The notes: generated by a model not told the origin, from the sequence alone. DNA of 64,000 nucleotides from an uncultured Candidatus Saccharibacteria bacterium (GCA_964401285.1 CAYNXY010000001.1:3342-67341); one strand, 5' to 3'; positions 50,218 to 60,529 are shown, counted from the first letter of the stretch. Numbers and translations are program-made.

Positions 50218-51507
50218 TTACTCTTTTTTCCTTAAAAACGCCGGGCTTTCCCAGCGCTTTTCTCTCTTCAAAAGCTCTTTTTCAATTTCTTTAAGGTCTT
50301 TTTGTACTTCAAGTGCGTTTTTTCTTACTTTTTCCTTATCCTCCTCTTCTTCCTTTTTTTCTTTCTGATTTTTCTTCTGGGCCACGCTTACTTTTTTCTT
50401 CTCCGGCTCTTTCTTCTCCGGCTCTTTCTTCTCCGACATTCTTTTTTTTTCTTCTTCTTTTTGCCCAACACCACCTTTTATCTCACCTTGGCTGGGTTCT
50501 AAAAACAATCCCTCCATCCAACATCCGACTGACAAGAGGGTAACATCAAGCTGGTTTTTACCTCGAACCAGGTCCACTCCAAAGATAACTCGAGAGTCTT
50601 CTTCTTTAGTTTGTTTAGCAATCGTCTCCGAAATCTCTGCTACCTCAGAAAGCGAAAGATTTTCCGGAGCACTGATATTAAAAAGTATTCTGTCCGCGCT
50701 TGAGATATCGTAAGGGTAAAGCGGATTTTCAAGTAAGTTCCTAAGCACAGCTTTCACTCTACCTTTTCCCCCAGCCTGAGCCCTCGTAAGGTAAGAAAGC
50801 GAGCGTTCTCCTCGTAAAATAGTTTCCAAGTCGGCAAAATCAATATTTATAAGGCCGGGGCTGTGAATCATTTCTATCAACCCTTCCAAACTGTTCCCTA
50901 TTGAGTAATTTATGCTTGAAAGAGCTTTCTTGATGGGCACCTTCTCATCCACAACCTGAAACACTCTTTGATTAGGGATAACCGCTAAAGCGTGAAGTAA
51001 AAATTGAAGTTTGCTCAAAGACATCTTAGCGGTTTTTAACTTTTTCTCTCTCTCAAACTCAAAGGGTAAAGTAAAAAATCCATAACTTAGCATTTCTAAA
51101 TCTTGAGCGATCTCAGCAAAAACAGGCATAGCACCAGAACCGGTACCACCACCAAGGCAAGAAACAAAAATACACAAATCAGCCCCTTCCAGGGCTTCTT
51201 TTATTTTCTCACTGTTTTCTTCTGCTGCTTTTCGACCCATCTCCACATCCATCCCCGTTCCCATTCCTTGAGTAGTTTCTTCTCCGAAACGAATGGTCTC
51301 AATTCTTTTTTTACGACTAAACTGAGAAAGAGCCGACTGGTCCGTGTCAGCGATATAAAAATCAGTTCGTTTATACTTAGCTGCAATGTCCCTGATAATG
51401 GAACCTGCACCTCCTCCCACGCCAACAACCTTAACCTTGATTTTATGAATAGGGAAATCCTCCTTCTTCTGTTTTTTTGCTTTTTCTTTCTTTTTATTTT
51501 TAGCCAT
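50218..51507 (-). CDS. ftsZ: Cell division protein FtsZ with a long Lys/Glu-rich C-terminal extension
   Basis: GVGGGAGSIIRDI, tubulin signature SCLGGGTGSGAMPVFAEIA and a C-terminal low-complexity EKKEPEKKEPEKKK. Confidence 0.9.
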   Translation of the reverse strand: MAKNKKKEKAKKQKKEDFPIHKIKVKVVGVGGGAGSIIRDIAAKYKRTDFYIADTDQSALSQFSRKKRIETIRFGEETTQGMGTGMDVEMGRKAAEENSEKIKEALEGADLCIFVSCLGGGTGSGAMPVFAEIAQDLEMLSYGFFTLPFEFEREKKLKTAKMSLSKLQFLLHALAVIPNQRVFQVVDEKVPIKKALSSINYSIGNSLEGLIEMIHSPGLINIDFADLETILRGERSLSYLTRAQAGGKGRVKAVLRNLLENPLYPYDISSADRILFNISAPENLSLSEVAEISETIAKQTKEEDSRVIFGVDLVRGKNQLDVTLLSVGCWMEGLFLEPSQGEIKGGVGQKEEEKKRMSEKKEPEKKEPEKKKVSVAQKKNQKEKKEEEEDKEKVRKNALEVQKDLKEIEKELLKREKRWESPAFLRKKE

Positions 51508-51987: not shown

Positions 51988-52065
51988 TTTGTCCTACCTT
52001 CTAAAATTTTTGTCCTACCCCTGACAATTTTTCCTTAGTTTTGTCAGTAGGCCAGTTAGGACAAA
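51988..52065. promoter_or_regulatory. Repeat cluster upstream of dtd: two direct TTTGCCTACC copies 21 bp apart, an inverted copy, and a nested CTGACAA/TTGTCAG inverted repeat
   Basis: TTTGTCCTACC at 51988-51998 and 52009-52019, and an inverted TTAGGACAAA at 52056-52065. CTGACAA (52021-27) and TTGTCAG (52041-47) lie between them. The cluster sits between the response-regulator stop and the dtd start. Confidence 0.5.
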
Positions 52066-52436
52066 TATTTTTCAACCTCCTCTACTAAAGCGTTGGGTGT
52101 GAAATTAGCTTTCATAAGATAGGCCTCAACACCCAATTCATTGGCCCTCACTTTTTCATCAGCTGCATCGTAATTAGAAAGGATCACCACCGGTATATCT
52201 TTAAGTTTCTCATCCCCTCTCACCTTTTGCAGAAAACTAAGCCCGTTTTCTTCAGGCAAGAGAATATCAAGAAGAATTATATCCGGAACCCTCTCCTGCA
52301 CATTCTCCCAGGCCTCTTCAGCGGTAAGAACGTCTTCCACCTCGAAGCCGGCTCTTTGGAACACACGACGATACATTTCCACCATCCTTTTTTCGTCTTC
52401 AACAAGAAGTATCTTTTTTTCGGAGCCCTCAACCAT
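52056..52436 (-). CDS. Stand-alone response-regulator receiver domain (CheY-like)
   Basis: ILLVEDEKRMVEMY...DIILLDILLPEENGLSFLQKVR...IPVVILSNY...K; 126 aa with no output domain. Confidence 0.85.
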   Translation of the reverse strand: MVEGSEKKILLVEDEKRMVEMYRRVFQRAGFEVEDVLTAEEAWENVQERVPDIILLDILLPEENGLSFLQKVRGDEKLKDIPVVILSNYDAADEKVRANELGVEAYLMKANFTPNALVEEVEKYLS

Positions 52437-52444
52437 ATTAACTA

Positions 52445-54079
52445 TTAATTATTTTTATCTTCTCCTCCGTTTTCCGTCTTTTTTTCTGCTTTTTTAGGGA
52501 TTTCCACATAAAAAGTGCTTCCTTTTCCTTTGCCTTTACTTTTCGCCCATATCTCCCCTCCATGAAGCTCTACGTATTTCTTATTAAGATACAAACCAAG
52601 CCCGGTCCCTTCCACAAAACGGTTCACCCCGGCTTCACCTCTTATAAAACGAGCGAATATTTTCGTAAGCTCTTCCTCGCTCATCCCTTCCCCTGTGTCT
52701 TGTACTTTCAACCTAACCTTGGAATCAACGGATTCTAAGGTTATAGTTATGCTACCCTCATTAGTATATCTTATAGCATTGTCTAGTAAGTTGAATACAA
52801 CTTGCCTCATCTTAACCGGGTCCACCCTTAGTTTATCAAAATCTTTCGGTTTACGCCACTTAATCTTTAAACCCTTCTTCTCTGCTCTACGGGATAACTC
52901 GTTTACAACACTTTCCACCACCTCACCCATATCCGTTTCCTCAAGCTCAAGTTCAAGCCGCCCTAAATCTGCCTTGGAAATATTTAAAAGATCGTTAACC
53001 ACATTCACCAATCTCTCGTTTGATTCAAATATATCTTTAAGCGGAGGGCGAGCGTCCTCGGGGACCTCCCCGTATTCACCTTCAAGTATCATCGAAGAAA
53101 GCCCCTTAACAATGGTAATAGGCGTTCGGAGCTGATGGGAAGCCATAGCCACAAACTCACTTTTTGCTTCATCTATTCTTTTAAGTTCATCATATGCCTC
53201 CCTGAGATTATCCGCCATCTCTTCCATCTCCTCTCGCCGCTTTATCTCCTTTAATACACTCTTAATGAGGGTCCATCCGAGGTAAATGAAGGCAATGAGA
53301 ATCAAACCTTTAAATATAACCTTGCTTGCTCCCTGCGCCAACAATAACTCTATAAAAAGAACTAAACTGACTAATCCAACAAGTAATTCAGTAGCTATAA
53401 CCCTGATATTAAACAAATGGTGCTTGGTAATAGCGTAGGCTATAAAAATAACCATAGCTAAGGTCCACATCGGTCCAATTTGATAATATCTAAAATTTCC
53501 GACCGTTGGCAATAATAGATTAAATACGGTCGCGAAAAAAACAGTAACAAAAAAACCTACTAGTATATACTTAATCTGTCTTTTTAGGTTTCTTTTTGCC
53601 TTTTTATACTTGGCAACTAATAACCAAAATCCTAGAAAAAAATAGAAAGAAATATAAAAGAAATATAACGGATACAAAGAACCAAAAGAAATTATTCGCT
53701 CTTTGTTAAAAACCTTAAACCCAGTAATAATATAGTCTGCATGTATTAAGTAAACAAAAAGAGAAAACGGTATCCAGAGAATAAAACTAATCCACTTTGG
53801 GAAGAAAGGCTTATTTTCAGGAAAATAAAGACAAAAATATAAGAAAAACAAAGCTGAAAGCGCTGCGGCTGAATAAGCCACCTTACTCAATAACAAGGCT
53901 GTTTCTGGAATATTAGTATAATAATAAACAAATAAGGGAGCAGACCACAATATTACACTTCCTAAGAGTAATAGATAAAAGAGGATTGATTTCGTAATCT
54001 TAGTACTAAAATATATAAAAACGACCAAAGCTAAATTCACTAAAATAGTCACTAATAAAATAGCAGAAGTTATAGCCAT
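52445..54079 (-). CDS. Sensor histidine kinase with a large N-terminal multi-pass membrane sensor domain
   Basis: About 8 TM helices, a coiled linker, H-box ASHQLRTPITIVKG and HATPase_c N/G1/G2 boxes (DNAIRYT...QDTGEGM...GTGLGLY). Confidence 0.85.
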   Translation of the reverse strand: MAITSAILLVTILVNLALVVFIYFSTKITKSILFYLLLLGSVILWSAPLFVYYYTNIPETALLLSKVAYSAAALSALFFLYFCLYFPENKPFFPKWISFILWIPFSLFVYLIHADYIITGFKVFNKERIISFGSLYPLYFFYISFYFFLGFWLLVAKYKKAKRNLKRQIKYILVGFFVTVFFATVFNLLLPTVGNFRYYQIGPMWTLAMVIFIAYAITKHHLFNIRVIATELLVGLVSLVLFIELLLAQGASKVIFKGLILIAFIYLGWTLIKSVLKEIKRREEMEEMADNLREAYDELKRIDEAKSEFVAMASHQLRTPITIVKGLSSMILEGEYGEVPEDARPPLKDIFESNERLVNVVNDLLNISKADLGRLELELEETDMGEVVESVVNELSRRAEKKGLKIKWRKPKDFDKLRVDPVKMRQVVFNLLDNAIRYTNEGSITITLESVDSKVRLKVQDTGEGMSEEELTKIFARFIRGEAGVNRFVEGTGLGLYLNKKYVELHGGEIWAKSKGKGKGSTFYVEIPKKAEKKTENGGEDKNN

Positions 54080-54867
54080 AACAATATTTTTGCTTTAATT
54101 GCCTTCAAAGACCTTCTCAAAGAATAAATAAACTTAACAACTATTGCGTTTTTAAATAAAAAAATATTTTCTCCTAATTTTTTGAACAAAAGCTTATTAT
54201 TAAGAATAGAATCGACATAATTCTCCACTTCTTCTCTTAGATAATATATTAAATAAACTGGTCTGTTCGGGTCGTTGAAAAAATTAGAAAGAGGATCGTG
54301 CGATTTTTCTGGATCATAAATTAACTCTTTCTTATTAATAACATGTACAGGAAGACCTAGTTCTAGTATGCTTTTTAGAGCCTTTCCCTTAATCGTACCA
54401 TAACCAGCTTTAATATTGTTTTCTCTAGAAAAATCTAGCATAGAAGAAATCAATCCTAATAAAATCAAATGCCTTGGTAAATACACCTTTTCAGAATATT
54501 TAATAGAAATTAGCCTCCCAATCTCACAGACTTCATCAGAAGACATTTTTTTAATCTCTGAAGGTTCTTTAAACTCATAATACTCTGTTCTTGTGGGCGG
54601 AGGGGAAATTGTTATTATGCGGGCGCTACCAATTATTTTTCCGTCAATCTCAGCAATAAAGTAATGGCACTTATTGATTCTATCGTATTCGTCAATCTCT
54701 CTCTCCTCTAAACTTTCGTCGTCTGGTATATATGCTTCTTTTTTGACATAAACCTTATATCTGAGCTCATACATCTTGTCCAGCTCTTCTTCACTGTTAG
54801 GCATTCCAAATAATATAGTTTTCAATTCCCCACGGAGATTGATTTTAATGCTCTTATACGCCTTCAT
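54070..54867 (-). CDS. GNAT-fold N-acyltransferase of the autoinducer-synthase-like (LuxI / FeeM N-acyl amino acid synthase) type
   Basis: MYELRYKVYVKKEAYIPDDESLEEREIDEYDRINKCHYFIAEIDGKIIGSARI matches the LuxI/FeeM pattern R-x2-VF-x(n)-E-x-D-x-YD-x(n)-G-x3-G-x-RL. The 265-aa length is in range. Confidence 0.45.
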   Translation of the reverse strand: MKAYKSIKINLRGELKTILFGMPNSEEELDKMYELRYKVYVKKEAYIPDDESLEEREIDEYDRINKCHYFIAEIDGKIIGSARIITISPPPTRTEYYEFKEPSEIKKMSSDEVCEIGRLISIKYSEKVYLPRHLILLGLISSMLDFSRENNIKAGYGTIKGKALKSILELGLPVHVINKKELIYDPEKSHDPLSNFFNDPNRPVYLIYYLREEVENYVDSILNNKLLFKKLGENIFLFKNAIVVKFIYSLRRSLKAIKAKILLWL

Positions 54868-54870
54868 GAT

Positions 54871-55569
54871 TCACAATTTTCTCCCTGAATTCAAAATCGA
54901 CTGATCAGCGTAAACTGAAAAGTCGTTAGATACATCAGAAAAGCCTACTTCTTGTAACAAAACTTTTTGTTCTCCTTTTTCAAAAAAATAGTACTCATTT
55001 TCCTGAGTGATAAAGTGGTTGTAGTAAAGAATCTTTATAGCTGGTTTGATAAGAAGAGTTACTTTAACTAAACTTTTTAAAAACCCTTGCTCTTTAAAAT
55101 TAAGCTTTAACCCTTCTAAATATATTTTAAAGGGACTCCAGCCCTTTTTAGGGTTAGCTATCACTACCTTCCCGTTCGGTTTTAACACTCTTATGAATTC
55201 TTTTAAAACTTCTTTGTGTTTTTTTTTCGGAATCGCGTATAAGACATTGTTACAGGTAATTTTATCAAAGTGCTCATTTGGAAAAGGTAACTTTTCTCTT
55301 AGGTCAGAAAGGACTAACTCAAGCACTGGATTTTTACTCCTACAAATATCGAGAGCTGCTTGTGAATTATCGAGCCCCACTACCTCTGCTCCTCTTTCTT
55401 CCAGCTTCAAAGCTAAATTACAAGTACCACAACCAGCTTCTAAAACCTTATCTCCCTCTTTAACGTCCAACTCATCACAAATAGTATTTAAAAGTTTTTG
55501 ATAAGGAATCAAAAGATTTAACACGTCATAAACTTCAAAATATTTTCTCCAGAAATCTGCACTAAGCAT
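54871..55569 (-). CDS. Class I SAM-dependent methyltransferase
   Basis: Motif I VLEAGCGTCNLALKL, motif post-I VVGLDNS and motif II ITCNNVLYAI. Confidence 0.8.
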   Translation of the reverse strand: MLSADFWRKYFEVYDVLNLLIPYQKLLNTICDELDVKEGDKVLEAGCGTCNLALKLEERGAEVVGLDNSQAALDICRSKNPVLELVLSDLREKLPFPNEHFDKITCNNVLYAIPKKKHKEVLKEFIRVLKPNGKVVIANPKKGWSPFKIYLEGLKLNFKEQGFLKSLVKVTLLIKPAIKILYYNHFITQENEYYFFEKGEQKVLLQEVGFSDVSNDFSVYADQSILNSGRKL

Positions 55570-55715
55570 TTTAACAATTTCTTCTATTTTACCTCAATTT
55601 CCTTAAAAATCAAAAAGAGGACGGGAACTCCCACTCCCCTTCAAGGTGTTAAAATTTAATACAACAAAACATTTAATTTTTCCCTTTTTTAGGGCTAAAC
55701 ATTACCTTGCTATCT

Positions 55716-56069
55716 TTAAAAATACGGTAAAAAGATTATGAGACCAATGATTAAGGCGCCTAACGCGGCAACTAAAACCCCCGCGGCCATTGTGTCTTTT
55801 ACAACTCGAACTTGAGGGCGGAACTCCGGCTCAACTATATCAAGCATTTTTTCAGCGGTGGTATTAATAAGCTCGAGAGATAAAACCAAAAAAACCATAA
55901 TTAAAATAATAGTTTTTTCCAGAGCGGTAATACCAAAATAAAACATTAAAAAGGTCACAAATAAAGCTGTTAGCAACTGAATGCGAAAACTCTGCTCCTC
56001 GTAAAAAGCGTATTTTAAACCGCTAAAAGCGTAGCGCAAACTCTGGACAAATTCTTGAAAAGAAAACAT
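55716..56069 (-). CDS. dgkA: Diacylglycerol kinase / undecaprenol kinase (prokaryotic DagK family)
   Basis: 117 aa with 3 TM helices and the conserved ELINTTAEK (cf. ELLNTAIE). Confidence 0.8.
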   Translation of the reverse strand: MFSFQEFVQSLRYAFSGLKYAFYEEQSFRIQLLTALFVTFLMFYFGITALEKTIILIMVFLVLSLELINTTAEKMLDIVEPEFRPQVRVVKDTMAAGVLVAALGALIIGLIIFLPYF

Positions 56070-56225
56070 TTCCCTTGGATTTATTTTGACCTATCACTCT
56101 TATTCTAACTTAACTTTCCCCAGAATCAAAAAAAGAAATTGGCTGAAGGCACTCAATTCGATTTCTTTCTCCCTTCTTTTTATTCTGTTATGCTAGAGAA
56201 GGGACTGAAATAAAAATCATATTCT

Positions 56226-57383
56226 ATGAGGGAAAAACATTTAAAGATTAAAAATTGGAGCAAGGGGTTTGCGGGGTGCCTGCATTTTCCTTTTCCCCAT
56301 TTTCTTACTCGATTTTTGGAAAAAACAAAAATAATTGAAAAATGCTTTGTTTTTTTTGGCCTGCTCAGACCCGTGAAAGATTTCAAGCTTTGCGAGGTTC
56401 CTCCCAGAACGGCTGTTTTAATAAAGGAGGGGAGAAAAAAAGGAATAACTTTTAGGGCCCTTAAAAGCCCTGCGGGGTTTACCAGTTATTTTTTGATGAA
56501 AATCGACGAAAAATCTTTTTTAATCGAAGGGCTGCCAAGAGCGGAATTTTTAAGCGGGCCCGCCTACGAGCTGGTAGACGACAAATACAAGGTTAAAAAA
56601 ACGTTAGAAGAAAAAGGGCTGCCCACGCTAAAAGGAGAGTCATTCTGGTGGTTTCAAAAAAAGAAGGCCCTTAACTTCAGCTCTCGCCTAGGGTTTCCCT
56701 TGGTGGTCAAGCCGAGAACCGGCTCTCTGGGAAAAAAGGTTTTTACCAATTTAAAAAACCAAGAGGAGGTAGACGCGGCCATAGAAGAAGCAAGCAAGTT
56801 TTCCCCTGCTTTTTTAATAGAAAAGTTTTTACCTGACGTTTCAGATTTTAGGGTAACAATAGTGGATTTTGAAAAAGTTTTTTGTTTTAAAAGAATTACC
56901 GCCCAAGTAATTGGAGACGGAACTCATACTATTTCCCAACTTATCCAAAAAGAAAACCAGAACCCAAAACGAGGCAAAACCCGTACCATTAAAACCCCTT
57001 TTTACAAGTTAGTAACAAACAAGGAAACAGAAAAGATATTAAAAGAGCAAGGTTTCTCTTTTTCAGATGTCCCCCAAAAAGAAGAAATCGTAAAGCTACA
57101 AAAAGACCCTTTCCTAAGGTTGGGAGGAACCACCACAAACAAAGTAGAAGTAGCACCTGAAAACATTCAACTTTTTAAAAAAATAGCCAGAACTTTTGAA
57201 GCAAGGGTAGTGGGAATTGATTTTTTAGCCGAAGACATCTCGGTTCCCTGGCAAAAACAAACTTGTGCTGTTTTAGAGCTCAACAGCTTGCCGGGGATCA
57301 TCGGCCACCATTTCCCCTCTTCCGGCTCCCCCCAAAATGTTGCCGGCGCGATAATCGAGATGGTTTTAAAATACTACAAGTAA
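56226..57383 (+). CDS. Stand-alone cyanophycin-synthetase-like ATP-grasp ligase (CphA N-terminal ATP-grasp module without the Mur-ligase domain)
   Basis: Collinear with the CphA ATP-grasp region: VIGDGTHTISQLIQKENQNPKRG; LRLGGTTTNKVEVAPEN...ARVVGIDFLAEDISVPW...AVLELNSLPGI; SGSPQNVAGAIIEMV. The protein ends there. Confidence 0.65.
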   Translation: MREKHLKIKNWSKGFAGCLHFPFPHFLTRFLEKTKIIEKCFVFFGLLRPVKDFKLCEVPPRTAVLIKEGRKKGITFRALKSPAGFTSYFLMKIDEKSFLIEGLPRAEFLSGPAYELVDDKYKVKKTLEEKGLPTLKGESFWWFQKKKALNFSSRLGFPLVVKPRTGSLGKKVFTNLKNQEEVDAAIEEASKFSPAFLIEKFLPDVSDFRVTIVDFEKVFCFKRITAQVIGDGTHTISQLIQKENQNPKRGKTRTIKTPFYKLVTNKETEKILKEQGFSFSDVPQKEEIVKLQKDPFLRLGGTTTNKVEVAPENIQLFKKIARTFEARVVGIDFLAEDISVPWQKQTCAVLELNSLPGIIGHHFPSSGSPQNVAGAIIEMVLKYYK

Positions 57384-57417
57384 AAACTGAATGTCTTTTG
57401 TCGGTTAAAAATTTAAA

Positions 57418-57442
57418 ACAGGCACAAAAGTGCCCGTTTTTT
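57418..57442 (+). terminator. Rho-independent terminator (GGCAC-AAAA-GTGCC plus CGTTTTTT) between convergent genes
   Basis: Hairpin plus T-tract, 35 nt after the ATP-grasp stop. Confidence 0.65.
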
Positions 57443-57460
57443 AGTTAAGCAACAAGATTT

Positions 57461-59185
57461 TTATTCTTTAACAGAACCCGATTCTTTTTCTTTTAAAACG
57501 TAATGCAAGGTTTTACCCAGGTGGGATTTAGGGATTTCGGAGATTTTTTCAATCTTTTTAGGAAGTTTATAGTAAGTAAGGTGTTTTCGACAGAAATCAA
57601 GAAGTTCCTCTTCCTCTACCCCATTTTTGCTCACCACAAAGGCCTTGGGCGCCTCACCTGTTTTTTCATCCTCTACTTTTATGACCGCTGCTTCTTTTAC
57701 TGCAGGGTGCTTGGACAAAACCTCTTCTATTTCCCGAGGCCAAACCTTCTGACCACTTATATTTATCATATCATCCAACCGTCCCTGGATGTAAAAATAG
57801 CCGTCTGCATCCATTAAAGCAATATCCTTGGTATGAAACCAACCGTCTTCATCAAACATTTCTTTTGTCAACCCCGGCTCATTCCAATACCCTCTAAAAA
57901 GTTGAGGGCCTTTAATCATAAGTTCTCCTGAATGTAGAGCCGGCAGTTCTTCTCCGCTTTCGGGATGTACGATTTTAACTTTTGTCCCCGGCAGAGGAAT
58001 ACCGATGCTTCCTACCTTCTGCTTCCCTAAAGGCGGGTTCATGTGAGTAATGGGAGAGCTTTCAGTTAAACCGTAGGCCTCTATTATCGGCTCCCCCGTT
58101 ATTTTTTTTACCTTTCTTAAAACTTCAGCCGGGCAGGAAGCAGCACCGCTTCCACAGAAACGAATGGAAGAAATGTCAAAACATTCCGGGTCCTTTTCAA
58201 TAAGCCCCATAATAGCGGAGAAAATAGCAGGCACCCCTGCCACAATAGTAATCCCATACTCTTCTATTGCTTCACAGGCCGGTTTAGTATGAAATTCGGG
58301 GAAAAGAACCACAGTCCACCCTTCCCGCATAGAATAGTTAAGCACAAAAGTCAGCCCGTAAATATGAAAAAAGGGCAAGGCGCCGAACTGCACTTCCTTG
58401 CCCGGCCACGTTGCCTTACCTATGAGAGCACTAATCTGGTCAAGGTTGGCAGTAACATTAAAATGGGTAAGTGGAACACCCTTGGGATCCCCCGTAGTAC
58501 CACTGGTATACATCAGAAGAGCCAAATCGTTTTTTGCTTCAATAGAAACCTTCTCGGGCTCCGAAGAAGAGTTCTCAATAAGCTCTTCAAAATCCAAGGC
58601 GCCGTTGTTTTTCAGTTTAGCTCTTTTAGTCGCCTGAAATACTCTTTTAGGCAAATTCTTAATGCTATTTAAAACTCCAAGGTGAGAAGGCAGATAAGCA
58701 CCAATATCCGTTAAAATAATATTATCAATTTCCAGTTTGTCTTGAATCTCAGCCACGCGACCCGAAAATATTTTAAGAGCCACAATCGTGCGGGAGCCGG
58801 AATCTTTCATGACTTGTAATAATTCTTTTTTAGTATAAAGGGGGTTAAGAGGTGAAACCACCGCTCCCACTTTTAAAGCCCCGTAAAAAGCAATAACGAA
58901 AGACGGGCAGTTGGGAAGAAAAAGAGTTACTATATCTCCTTTTTTAACACCCATCTTTTGCAGAGCAGAAGCAAAACGATCCGACTTTCCTTCAAGCTCC
59001 TTAAAAGAATGAGTTTGTCCGTAAAATACGAGGGCTTCTTTATCCGGATAATCCTTAGCCGAGGCGGACAAAACCTCCTGGAGTGGATAAGATTCAGGTT
59101 CCAATTCTCTCCCTGCCCCTTCAGGGTAGTTTTCCAACCACACCCCATCCATATCCTTTGCCTTTTTGTTTAAAAAATCATTCAT
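57461..59185 (-). CDS. Acyl-CoA ligase (AMP-binding / long-chain fatty-acid--CoA ligase family). The real start is possibly the internal Met at about 59152.
   Basis: AMP-binding motif LMYTSGTTGDPKGV, hinge/A8 GYGLTE and a C-terminal lid; 563-574 aa. Confidence 0.85.
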   Translation of the reverse strand: MNDFLNKKAKDMDGVWLENYPEGAGRELEPESYPLQEVLSASAKDYPDKEALVFYGQTHSFKELEGKSDRFASALQKMGVKKGDIVTLFLPNCPSFVIAFYGALKVGAVVSPLNPLYTKKELLQVMKDSGSRTIVALKIFSGRVAEIQDKLEIDNIILTDIGAYLPSHLGVLNSIKNLPKRVFQATKRAKLKNNGALDFEELIENSSSEPEKVSIEAKNDLALLMYTSGTTGDPKGVPLTHFNVTANLDQISALIGKATWPGKEVQFGALPFFHIYGLTFVLNYSMREGWTVVLFPEFHTKPACEAIEEYGITIVAGVPAIFSAIMGLIEKDPECFDISSIRFCGSGAASCPAEVLRKVKKITGEPIIEAYGLTESSPITHMNPPLGKQKVGSIGIPLPGTKVKIVHPESGEELPALHSGELMIKGPQLFRGYWNEPGLTKEMFDEDGWFHTKDIALMDADGYFYIQGRLDDMINISGQKVWPREIEEVLSKHPAVKEAAVIKVEDEKTGEAPKAFVVSKNGVEEEELLDFCRKHLTYYKLPKKIEKISEIPKSHLGKTLHYVLKEKESGSVKE

Positions 59186-59195
59186 ATTTTAGAAT

Positions 59196-59224
59196 AAAAA
59201 AACCAACATCTCTGTTGGTTTTAA
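59196..59224 (-). terminator. Hairpin (AACCAACA-GAGA-TGTTGGTT plus U-tract) between the C45 gene and the acyl-CoA ligase
   Basis: Perfect 8-bp stem with T-tract and A-tract on either side. It lies 160 nt downstream of the C45 gene and 11 nt upstream of the ORF-track ligase start. Confidence 0.5.
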
Positions 59225-59383
59225 AAGCAATAAATAATAATGCTAGGTGAAACAAAATAGCTTAACTTCCTCCTTTCACAAAATGTAGTTTTGAAGGTAG
59301 GTAAAAGTGTCATCCCCTCTTGTTAACAATTTTTAAATTTTAAACGATATCTTTTCTCATTATCCTACAAGAAAATAATAATG

Positions 59384-60529
59384 TCAAGAAGTGCTAAAAA
59401 TCTCATCCAGGAAGAATTCCTGCCATTCCCCATTAAAAGTAACAGGAACCTTGTTGCCTGCGGGAAAAAGGATTTTTCTCTCTTGAGGAATATAAATAAA
59501 CCCCTGCACGGTGCCATTATTGGAAACAGAACCGCGGCGCGGACTGAACGTTTTCTCATGGATTTTCATTATTTTTATCGCCTCCTCAGTCGAACTCACT
59601 CCGTCTTTTATTTCTTTTTTAATGTTTTCCCCCCTTTTAAGAGTAGCATTATATTCTTTATGATTTTCATAGTTTTTCACGTACCATTTGTTCTTCATCT
59701 CCTCAGAAACAAAGTGGTTGGTGTTAACCAAAACCCCGTTCATTCTTTCCACAAAATAGTCACCCTGACACATCTCCACAAGAAAAGTATTTTGCCTCTC
59801 GCCGTCTGAGACGAGACAGGCAAAGGGACGGATGGAACTTACTTTTTTCAATGCTTTAAGCCAAATGCGGGAGTTTGAAGCAAGCTTAGTGAGCCCCCAA
59901 GCAATAGAAACAATGGGTGTGTTGTCAAAATCAAACCCCTTGTGGGCCCCGCCTCCGTCATTAACCGCAAAAAGAGTTCCTTTTTTTGTGATAACGGAAT
60001 CTGTTATGAGAAGACCCGGCAAAGAAGGAGCAATAAATTTATTTTGCAACTCATTATTATCATAAACAGCAATAAATCTTCTTTTACTTATAAACTCAGT
60101 TACTTTTTTTTCAAAATAAAGGTCAGTTGTTTTTCCGATTAAAACATTTTCCGTTTTTTTAAACGGTGCAGCAAAAAAGGAACACCCTACAAAAGTGTTC
60201 CTGAAGGCAATGGCTATCTCGTAAATTGAATTAAAAAGCAATACCCATTCCAAAGCTACCCCGCTCCCCTCAGAAATCCCTTTCATTTCTTCTATCTCGT
60301 CAGTAGTGTACTCTTTTTTAAGATTATTCGTCTTTCTAAACACTATCTTCATAAAAAACTTGGCAGAAGCCCACCCCAGTTTGTTCTGAACATAGTGAGT
60401 GATAAAATCCGTTTCGTCCTCTATCTCCTCTCTTAAAAAAGACCCATGAGCAAAACCCCGCTTATACGGATCTTTTTCTCTTAAAAACAAAAAATTTACG
60501 CCTCTTATTTTTTTAAAATCTGATTCCAT
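59384..60529 (-). CDS. Ntn-hydrolase of the peptidase C45 / acyl-CoA:6-aminopenicillanic-acid acyltransferase-like family
   Basis: 381 aa with a candidate autoproteolytic nucleophile in VGCSFFAAP (Gly-Cys-Ser) followed by LIGKTTD. The length and pattern fit the C45/AAT family but are not diagnostic. Confidence 0.35.
   Translation of the reverse strand: MESDFKKIRGVNFLFLREKDPYKRGFAHGSFLREEIEDETDFITHYVQNKLGWASAKFFMKIVFRKTNNLKKEYTTDEIEEMKGISEGSGVALEWVLLFNSIYEIAIAFRNTFVGCSFFAAPFKKTENVLIGKTTDLYFEKKVTEFISKRRFIAVYDNNELQNKFIAPSLPGLLITDSVITKKGTLFAVNDGGGAHKGFDFDNTPIVSIAWGLTKLASNSRIWLKALKKVSSIRPFACLVSDGERQNTFLVEMCQGDYFVERMNGVLVNTNHFVSEEMKNKWYVKNYENHKEYNATLKRGENIKKEIKDGVSSTEEAIKIMKIHEKTFSPRRGSVSNNGTVQGFIYIPQERKILFPAGNKVPVTFNGEWQEFFLDEIFSTS

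Follow-up and report, generated by a model that had tools for sequence, protein, structure and literature searches.

The stretch of 64,000 nucleotides analysed here, to which we refer as the window, comes from an uncultured Candidatus Saccharibacteria bacterium (GCA_964401285.1, CAYNXY010000001.1:3342-67341). In an earlier note on this DNA, eight genes at positions 52056-60529 were proposed to form a single module. All eight open reading frames (ORFs) were found, the domain call for each of the eight proteins was reproduced by profile searches (Table 1), and the flanks consist of housekeeping genes, as the note had said; our analysis finds Dtd, FtsZ and GalU at one end and an ABC-3 transporter at the other. 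The extent of the module has to be revised: comparison of gene neighbourhoods leaves four of the eight genes, encoding a class I S-adenosylmethionine (SAM)-dependent methyltransferase (MT), a GNAT-fold N-acyltransferase (GNAT), a sensor histidine kinase (HK) and a response regulator (RR), and the other four look like unrelated neighbours. The functional unit is best explained as a predicted four-gene operon on the minus strand, MT-GNAT-HK-RR (52056-55569), hereafter the cassette, and not as an eight-gene block.

Table 1. Genes and putative transcription signals at the locus, with positions counted from the first nucleotide of the window.
Feature	Positions	Strand	Basis or remark
Receiver-only response regulator (RR), 126 aa	52056-52436	-	Response_reg domain alone; starts 8 nt past the HK stop codon
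Sensor histidine kinase (HK), 544 aa	52445-54079	-	HisKA_7TM, HisKA and HATPase_c
LuxI/FeeM-superfamily N-acyltransferase (GNAT), 265 aa	54070-54867	-	FeeM, Acetyltransf_5 and Autoind_synth profiles
Class I SAM-dependent methyltransferase (MT)	54871-55569	-	Profile search; first gene of the cassette
Putative operon boundary 5' of MT	55568-55638	-	Weak terminator-like hairpin (55638-55623), then two sigma-70-like promoter matches
Sigma-70-like promoter match	55613-55586		Consensus scan; weak evidence
Sigma-70-like promoter match	55597-55568		Consensus scan; weak evidence
DgkA diacylglycerol kinase	55716-56069	-	DAGK_prokar, 105.6 bits
ATP-grasp protein, 385 aa	56226-57383	+	ATP-grasp part of cyanophycin synthetase model
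Terminator-like hairpin	57415-57440		Gap between ligase and convergent ATP-grasp gene
Acyl-CoA ligase, FadD-like	57461-59185	-	AMP-binding
Terminator-like hairpin	59222-59199		Gap between C45 and ligase genes
C45 protein	59384-60529	-	C45_proenzyme NF040521, 124.7 bits vs cut-off 85, full length

Within the cassette, MT and GNAT are separated by 3 nt, GNAT and HK overlap by 10 nt and HK and RR are 8 nt apart. A common transcript with dgkA, which lies upstream, was considered and rejected on weak evidence, namely the hairpin and the promoter-like sites between dgkA and MT.

To compare neighbourhoods, we scanned genomes and metagenomes for loci and also looked up exact proteins and homologues of the MT; the exact sequence of the window GNAT was found in no indexed contig. 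The metagenome scan was seeded with a narrower GNAT alignment, broader alignments being too divergent. The gathered loci were searched with the eight window proteins (tblastn) and with a hidden Markov model (HMM) of the GNAT; about 20 independent loci were left once duplicate contigs had been removed. A word-indexed search returned 6 GNAT homologues, and an HMM scan over all 1.84 billion cluster representatives (clusters at 50% identity) returned 123 at E<1e-30, nearly all of about 250 residues.

The MT gene adjoins the GNAT gene in about 15 of 17 informative loci, in either order. Wherever downstream sequence exists, a HisKA_7TM kinase follows directly, with the distant locus L009 as the exception. 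The arrangement of MT and GNAT followed by the kinase was found in the window and in L001, L004, L006, L007, L012, L014, L017, L018, L029, L030, L031 and L033, and GNAT and kinase alone were found in L008, L011 and L021. Thus a membrane signalling protein occupies that slot in all loci for which downstream sequence is available. A receiver-only RR follows the kinase in the window, L004, L006, L017 and L033-35. As in the window, the genes are packed tightly or overlap. The cassette proteins of different loci share only 35-59% identity, and the flanks differ in every locus (e.g. ATP synthase, ribosomal proteins, Mur ligases, tRNA synthetases, MraZ). This low identity, together with the different flanks, indicates that the gene linkage is under selection and is not residual synteny. 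Of the cassette proteins the MT is conserved best: its pairwise identity averages 50%, that of the GNAT 42% and that of the kinase 38%.

In three proteins the two enzymes are fused: a GNAT-MT order is found in L006 (= P0029, 487 residues) and in P0055, and an MT-GNAT order in P0068. Independent fusions in both domain orders are strong evidence that both enzymes serve one pathway. Taken together, the gene order data support a functional link between GNAT, MT, HK and RR. The GNAT and MT genes have a GC content of 32-34% (about 30% at third codon positions), against 36.7% for the kinase gene, 43% for the RR gene and 41.7% for the window. The values for GNAT and MT, 8-10 points below that of the window, and the different flanks of each locus hint at a horizontal acquisition of the cassette.

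Several loci depart from the common arrangement. In L009 (9965-14053), a metagenome-assembled genome (MAG) labelled Actinomycetota, a distant GNAT and MT pair is followed by a polytopic GGDEF/HD-GYP protein in place of the histidine kinase and preceded by a GAF-SpoIIE phosphatase; BLASTP similarity between the polytopic N-terminus of the GGDEF/HD-GYP protein and the 7TM region of the window kinase was not significant, and no homology is claimed. A second HisKA_7TM protein lies beside the cassette in L004 (2-940, a truncated or stand-alone 7TM protein) and in L018 (5252-6949, a divergent full kinase), which suggests duplication of the sensor. In L015 (10767-18234, contig Ga0315541_1000130) the kinase gene is split. 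Its N-terminal piece, with 7TM and HisKA, continues in frame into the C-terminal part of IspH/LytB; genes for IspG, a polyprenyl synthase, a NUDIX protein and UbiA come next, and then the C-terminal kinase part. The sister contigs L014 and L016 keep the kinase intact, so that an insertion or an assembly chimera must be assumed here. The GNAT of L030 (9312-9979) is divided over two overlapping ORFs by a frameshift or a sequencing error, the PlsC, MT and kinase genes being intact. In P0065 (617 residues) a GNAT of the same family is fused to a class I/II aminotransferase domain that is pyridoxal phosphate (PLP)-dependent, without an MT, suggesting transamination as the source of the amine substrate in some lineages. 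Among the labelled relatives are L006 (Patescibacteria) and L007 (Saccharibacteria). The contig L001/L005 (JAACFH010000008.1/JAACEG010000008.1) is assigned to a Lysobacteraceae/Xanthomonadaceae MAG, has a GC content of 26% and a gene content resembling that of the Candidate Phyla Radiation (CPR), and is probably misbinned. On the whole, the cassette is found in many bacteria of the CPR/Patescibacteria type, whose genomes are small.

The GNAT of the window passes the Pfam cut-offs of three related families: FeeM (PF21926, 36.0 bits, cut-off 27), Acetyltransf_5 (30.8, cut-off 22.4) and Autoind_synth (PF00765, 26.2, cut-off 24). None of the NCBIfam cut-offs is reached. The scores were 17.3 and 16.1 bits for the N-acylhomoserine lactone (AHL) synthase models NF052393 and NF010408 (cut-offs 250 and 292), 39.8 bits for TIGR03694 (cut-off 111.95), which describes the NasY-type acyltransferases associated with PEP-CTERM/exosortase systems, and 17.7 bits for the OlsB model NF052555 (cut-off 320). 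The FeeM and TIGR03694 models match 61 of 62 family members, the OlsB models 1 of 62 and a TraI-type model, weakly, 10 of 62. When the family profile was compared with PDB sequences, only AHL synthases were significant (RpaI 5e-7, BjaI 2e-6, LasI 4e-5). The AlphaFold model built from the 62 family members (pLDDT 95, pTM 0.90) has a fold that, like the residues, agrees with those of the AHL synthases and FeeM. In the alignment to LasI, residues R36, D59, D62, R83, E115 and R118 fall on R23, D44, D47, R70, E101 and R104, and Y40 and Y46 on F27 and W33. From these comparisons we conclude that the GNAT represents a branch of the LuxI/FeeM N-acyltransferase superfamily that is new and well separated. 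The earlier assignment to a LuxI/FeeM-like N-acyltransferase, as opposed to a ribosomal or aminoglycoside acetyltransferase, is borne out by the profiles, the PDB matches and the fold alike.

The kinase has eight hydrophobic segments connected by short loops and no extracytoplasmic domain, so that the sensor region consists of membrane segments only. In the alignment of the kinases the phospho-accepting H315, N434, D461 and the conserved glycines of the ATP-binding domain are invariant. The conserved positions of the membrane region are W45, F82/F86, G202-P203 and the segment A216/I217…L222…I225. The RR has an acidic pair (E13/D14), the phospho-acceptor D57, S87 and K108, and lacks an output domain; given these residues, the protein should be phosphorylatable.

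The remaining genes of the locus are linked to the cassette loosely or not at all. Around the other cassettes of the approximately 20 loci, tblastn found neither ATP-grasp nor C45 nor DgkA homologues within 10 kb. The acyl-CoA ligase occurs near only one other cassette, that of L015, with a UPF0047 gene and an M16 peptidase gene on the opposite strand between ligase and MT. In seven loci (L001, L006, L007, L022, L030, L031, L032) a gene for a PlsC-like acyltransferase (PF01553) lies immediately upstream of the cassette. These proteins score best with models of the lysophosphatidate acyltransferase (LPAAT)/Aas type, and reach at most 29.4 bits with OlsA (cut-off 300) and 18.7 bits with GlsA (cut-off 260). 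The window has no PlsC-like gene, and there DgkA sits in the upstream slot. Since DgkA, like the PlsC-like enzyme, is a phosphatidate-forming enzyme, it could tentatively be seen as an accessory of the cassette, a thematic link to lipids and not a proof. In L031 an MMPL transporter gene lies downstream of the cassette.

The C45 protein is a genuine member of the C45 family of acyltransferase-like Ntn hydrolases, as had been proposed: it passes the NF040521 cut-off and has a Gly-Cys site ('VGCSFF' at about residues 113-118), its score with the Pfam AAT model being 22.1 bits (cut-off 23.2). The pair of C45 and ligase genes is retained in L026 (68% identity), which shares the whole ABC-3/ABC/DUF134/DUF5320 block, and the pairing there is plain synteny. 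The adjacency is absent for the C45 homologues in L027 (41%) and L028 (39%), which have unrelated neighbours. In L027 (8001-9158, Aenigmarchaeota MAG WJKS01000097.1) the homologue is located in a [NiFe]-hydrogenase/complex-I-like operon, between the genes for the 30-kDa and the large subunit. The resemblance that the earlier note saw to the pairing of phenylacetyl-CoA ligase with isopenicillin-N acyltransferase has no support from the comparison of loci, the two genes occurring together outside the window only in the syntenic L026; in the window a terminator-like hairpin lies between them. The ATP-grasp protein scores 215 bits with the cyanophycin synthetase model TIGR02068 (cut-off 850), over positions 206-472 of 862. 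With the ATP-grasp part alone matched and the score far below the cut-off, an identity as cyanophycin synthetase was ruled out. It also matches the ATP-grasp domain of GshAB, and its first ~110 residues have no domain match. A motif search of the window found no acyl carrier protein, a result that is uninformative for the genome as a whole. Finally, the FtsZ encoded in the flank (50218-51507) carries a long, low-complexity C-terminal tail of about 90 residues, rich in Lys and Glu.

What the cassette makes can be outlined with different degrees of confidence. Long-chain N-acylation combined with SAM-dependent methylation, functionally tied to the kinase, is the chemical core shared by the two leading models, and this core we consider probable. 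More specifically, we favour, tentatively and with slightly less than even confidence, the reading of the cassette as a synthase-receptor circuit for a methylated lipid of the N-acyl amino acid type. In this circuit, the GNAT would N-acylate an amino acid or amine with a long chain taken from acyl-ACP (acyl carrier protein) or acyl-CoA. The MT would modify that molecule too. That it esterifies the carboxylate, which would yield an uncharged N-acyl amino acid methyl ester, is the simplest conjecture; N-methylation would be equally possible. The lipophilic product may then partition into the membrane and be perceived by the co-encoded kinase through its bundle of about eight transmembrane segments. 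The kinase would phosphorylate the stand-alone receiver, which would act by protein-protein contacts and not by binding DNA. Such a circuit could report the density of self or kin, or the state of the membrane. The proposal of the earlier note, a sense-and-synthesise module for an N-acyl amino acid or amine-type signal or a membrane lipid, is therefore retained as the best reading of the MT-GNAT-HK-RR core, and abandoned with respect to its extent of eight genes.

We prefer the synthase-receptor circuit because a polytopic signalling partner is invariably present, including the GGDEF/HD-GYP protein of L009, because of the additional 7TM paralogues in L004 and L018 and the receiver-only RR, and because of the close parallel to known cassettes that pair the synthase of a lipid signal with a kinase sensing through the membrane. 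Indeed, the kinases LuxN, CqsS, LqsS and PhcS bind lipophilic autoinducers and lack an extracytoplasmic domain. A number of observations weigh on the other side. Bulk synthesis of membrane lipids would account at least as well as signalling for the PlsC-like gene in seven loci, the MMPL transporter of L031 and the DgkA of the window, and adjacency to a kinase is also known for lipid-modifying enzymes that are regulated and whose product is not sensed as a signal (des-desKR). The fold of the MT is of a generic small-molecule type from which the methyl acceptor cannot be read, and the residues that the GNAT shares with LuxI are probably common to the whole LuxI/FeeM/NasY superfamily, so that they do not discriminate between an amino acid and SAM as the amine donor. 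The receiver-only RR offers no hint of the output, and taxonomic labels exist for only a few of the loci.

In the main alternative, a pathway for a structural aminolipid is controlled by the two-component system: the GNAT would act like OlsB/GlsB, the PlsC-like enzyme would add the second chain like OlsA/GlsA, the MT would methylate the head group like OlsG, and the 7TM kinase would monitor the state of the membrane like DesK and tune synthesis without binding a diffusible signal. The logic of the OlsB/OlsA/OlsG pathway is established (PMC12971839), and the position of the PlsC-like gene directly upstream in seven loci, of DgkA, likewise phosphatidate-forming, in the same slot of the window, and of the MMPL transporter downstream in L031 would all suit it. 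The cationic amphipathic helices at the C-terminus of the GNAT and in the lid of the MT also suggest enzymes of the membrane surface. Against this, the GNAT family hardly resembles OlsB in profile (a single match in 62), the PlsC-like proteins are closer to the LPAAT/Aas type than to OlsA or GlsA, and neither the window nor several of the other loci have a PlsC gene, whereas the kinase is absent from none. Moreover, a kinase is no obligatory partner of the known aminolipid operons, and the RR lacks a DNA-binding domain through which transcription could be controlled. We therefore regard a structural aminolipid as a serious competitor, yet a rather unlikely one.

Both other explanations are less likely than these two models. 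In one of them the GNAT is a true AHL synthase that uses SAM as the amine donor, with a membrane kinase in place of LuxR, as in LuxM/LuxN; the enzyme might be CoA-dependent like RpaI and BjaI, since CPR genomes often lack fatty acid synthesis. The two best PDB sequence matches are precisely these CoA-dependent AHL synthases, the signature residues of LuxI are retained, the Autoind_synth score lies just above its cut-off, and an acyl-CoA ligase gene is found at 2-3 kb in the window and in L015. Set against these points are the scores of about 17 bits with curated AHL synthase models whose cut-offs are 250-292, the higher scores and larger number of matching members of the FeeM/NasY-type models, the replacement of W33 and F27 of LasI by Tyr, and an obligatory, sometimes fused MT that has no role in AHL synthesis. 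An AHL synthase thus appears improbable. The other explanation, that the ATP-grasp protein, the acyl-CoA ligase and the C45 protein belong to one pathway with the GNAT, MT, HK and RR, draws on their proximity in the window, on a fitting theme of acyl activation, amide formation and amide hydrolysis, and on the ligase gene near the cassette of L015. It is hard to reconcile with the absence of ATP-grasp, C45 and DgkA homologues within 10 kb of other cassettes, the adjacency of C45 and ligase in a close syntenic relative only, the ATP-grasp gene being on the opposite strand, and the two hairpins and the promoter-like site upstream of MT (Table 1); we consider it very improbable.

CPR/Patescibacteria have tiny genomes and for the most part live in attachment to a host cell, and their lipids are believed to be scavenged. 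A role of importance must be assumed for a cassette that outlasts genome reduction, moves from lineage to lineage and has had its two enzymes fused repeatedly. It is conceivable, though on balance doubtful, that bacteria of this type encode an autoinducer-like lipid circuit of their own, with a synthase of the LuxI/FeeM branch and an MT whose product is sensed by a 7TM kinase and its RR; if so, no quorum- or kin-sensing system encoded by these episymbionts themselves would have been known before. Full-text searches of the literature on N-acyl amino acid synthases together with histidine kinases and methyltransferases, and on autoinducer synthases or acyl-amino-acid or homoserine lactone clusters in Patescibacteria/CPR, gave no account of the cassette, and nothing relevant was found on the function of HisKA_7TM. 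In a review of aminolipids (PMC12971839) neither Patescibacteria nor the terms 'histidine kinase' and 'two-component' occur. For the biosynthesis of methyl esters of N-acyl amino acids no candidate synthase genes have been found so far (PMC11580390). The GNAT-MT fusions are plausible candidates for such synthases, and if this is true, MT and GNAT would be the first candidate gene pair for this synthesis. As a lipid-signal pair, the cassette would offer a testable handle on communication between cells or between symbiont and host, and a new class of receptors for acyl-amide signals; as a structural aminolipid pathway, it would show these organisms to be making some of their membrane themselves and monitoring it with a dedicated kinase. 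Under either reading the natural GNAT-MT fusions are ready-made constructs for heterologous expression.

Compared with the known synthases of its superfamily, the GNAT of the window aligns with the FeeM/NasY type by its N-terminal half only (positions 2-90 of 158 in PF21926, 14-117 of 241 in TIGR03694), and has about 90 additional residues, which include the cationic amphipathic C-terminal helix. Unlike the systems described by TIGR03694, the approximately 20 loci contain no exosortase or PEP-CTERM domain among their Pfam-annotated neighbours, and a fixed MT and 7TM kinase instead. The LuxI-type synthases (TofI, LasI, RpaI, BjaI, EsaI) differ in that the cassette has a histidine kinase, with no LuxR-family domain among the Pfam-annotated neighbours, and that AHL chemistry leaves its partner MT unexplained. 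The ornithine- and glycine-lipid pathways (OlsB/OlsA, with or without OlsG, and GlsB/GlsA) share with it an N-acyltransferase of the same clan (Acetyltransf_5), a PlsC-family neighbour in seven loci and an MT comparable in role to OlsG (PMC12971839). They are set apart by the OlsB, OlsA and GlsA models, whose cut-offs are not reached, by the absence of a PlsC-like gene from the window and by the obligatory coupling to a kinase, which is no feature of those pathways.

In its gene-level logic the cassette agrees with PhcB-PhcS-PhcR/Q, LuxM-LuxN, CqsA-CqsS and LqsA-LqsR-LqsS, in which the synthase of a small lipid is encoded beside a kinase with a wholly transmembrane sensor. In Vibrio (LuxM/LuxN and CqsA/CqsS) and in Legionella (Lqs) a lipid-signal synthase thus stands next to a transmembrane-sensing kinase, and Lqs and Phc also share with the cassette a receiver protein that does not bind DNA. 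In the Phc system of Ralstonia the signal, a fatty acid methyl ester, is made by the SAM-dependent methyltransferase PhcB (PMC8578825). LuxM, CqsA and PhcB belong to other families than the GNAT, and the sensor of the cassette is of the HisKA_7TM type. The hosts of the cassette are CPR-type bacteria, those of the known systems Proteobacteria. The cassette, apparently undescribed, would combine a new LuxI/FeeM branch, a dedicated MT and a HisKA_7TM kinase in an arrangement of a known kind, the lipid signalling cassette of a synthase and a membrane kinase.

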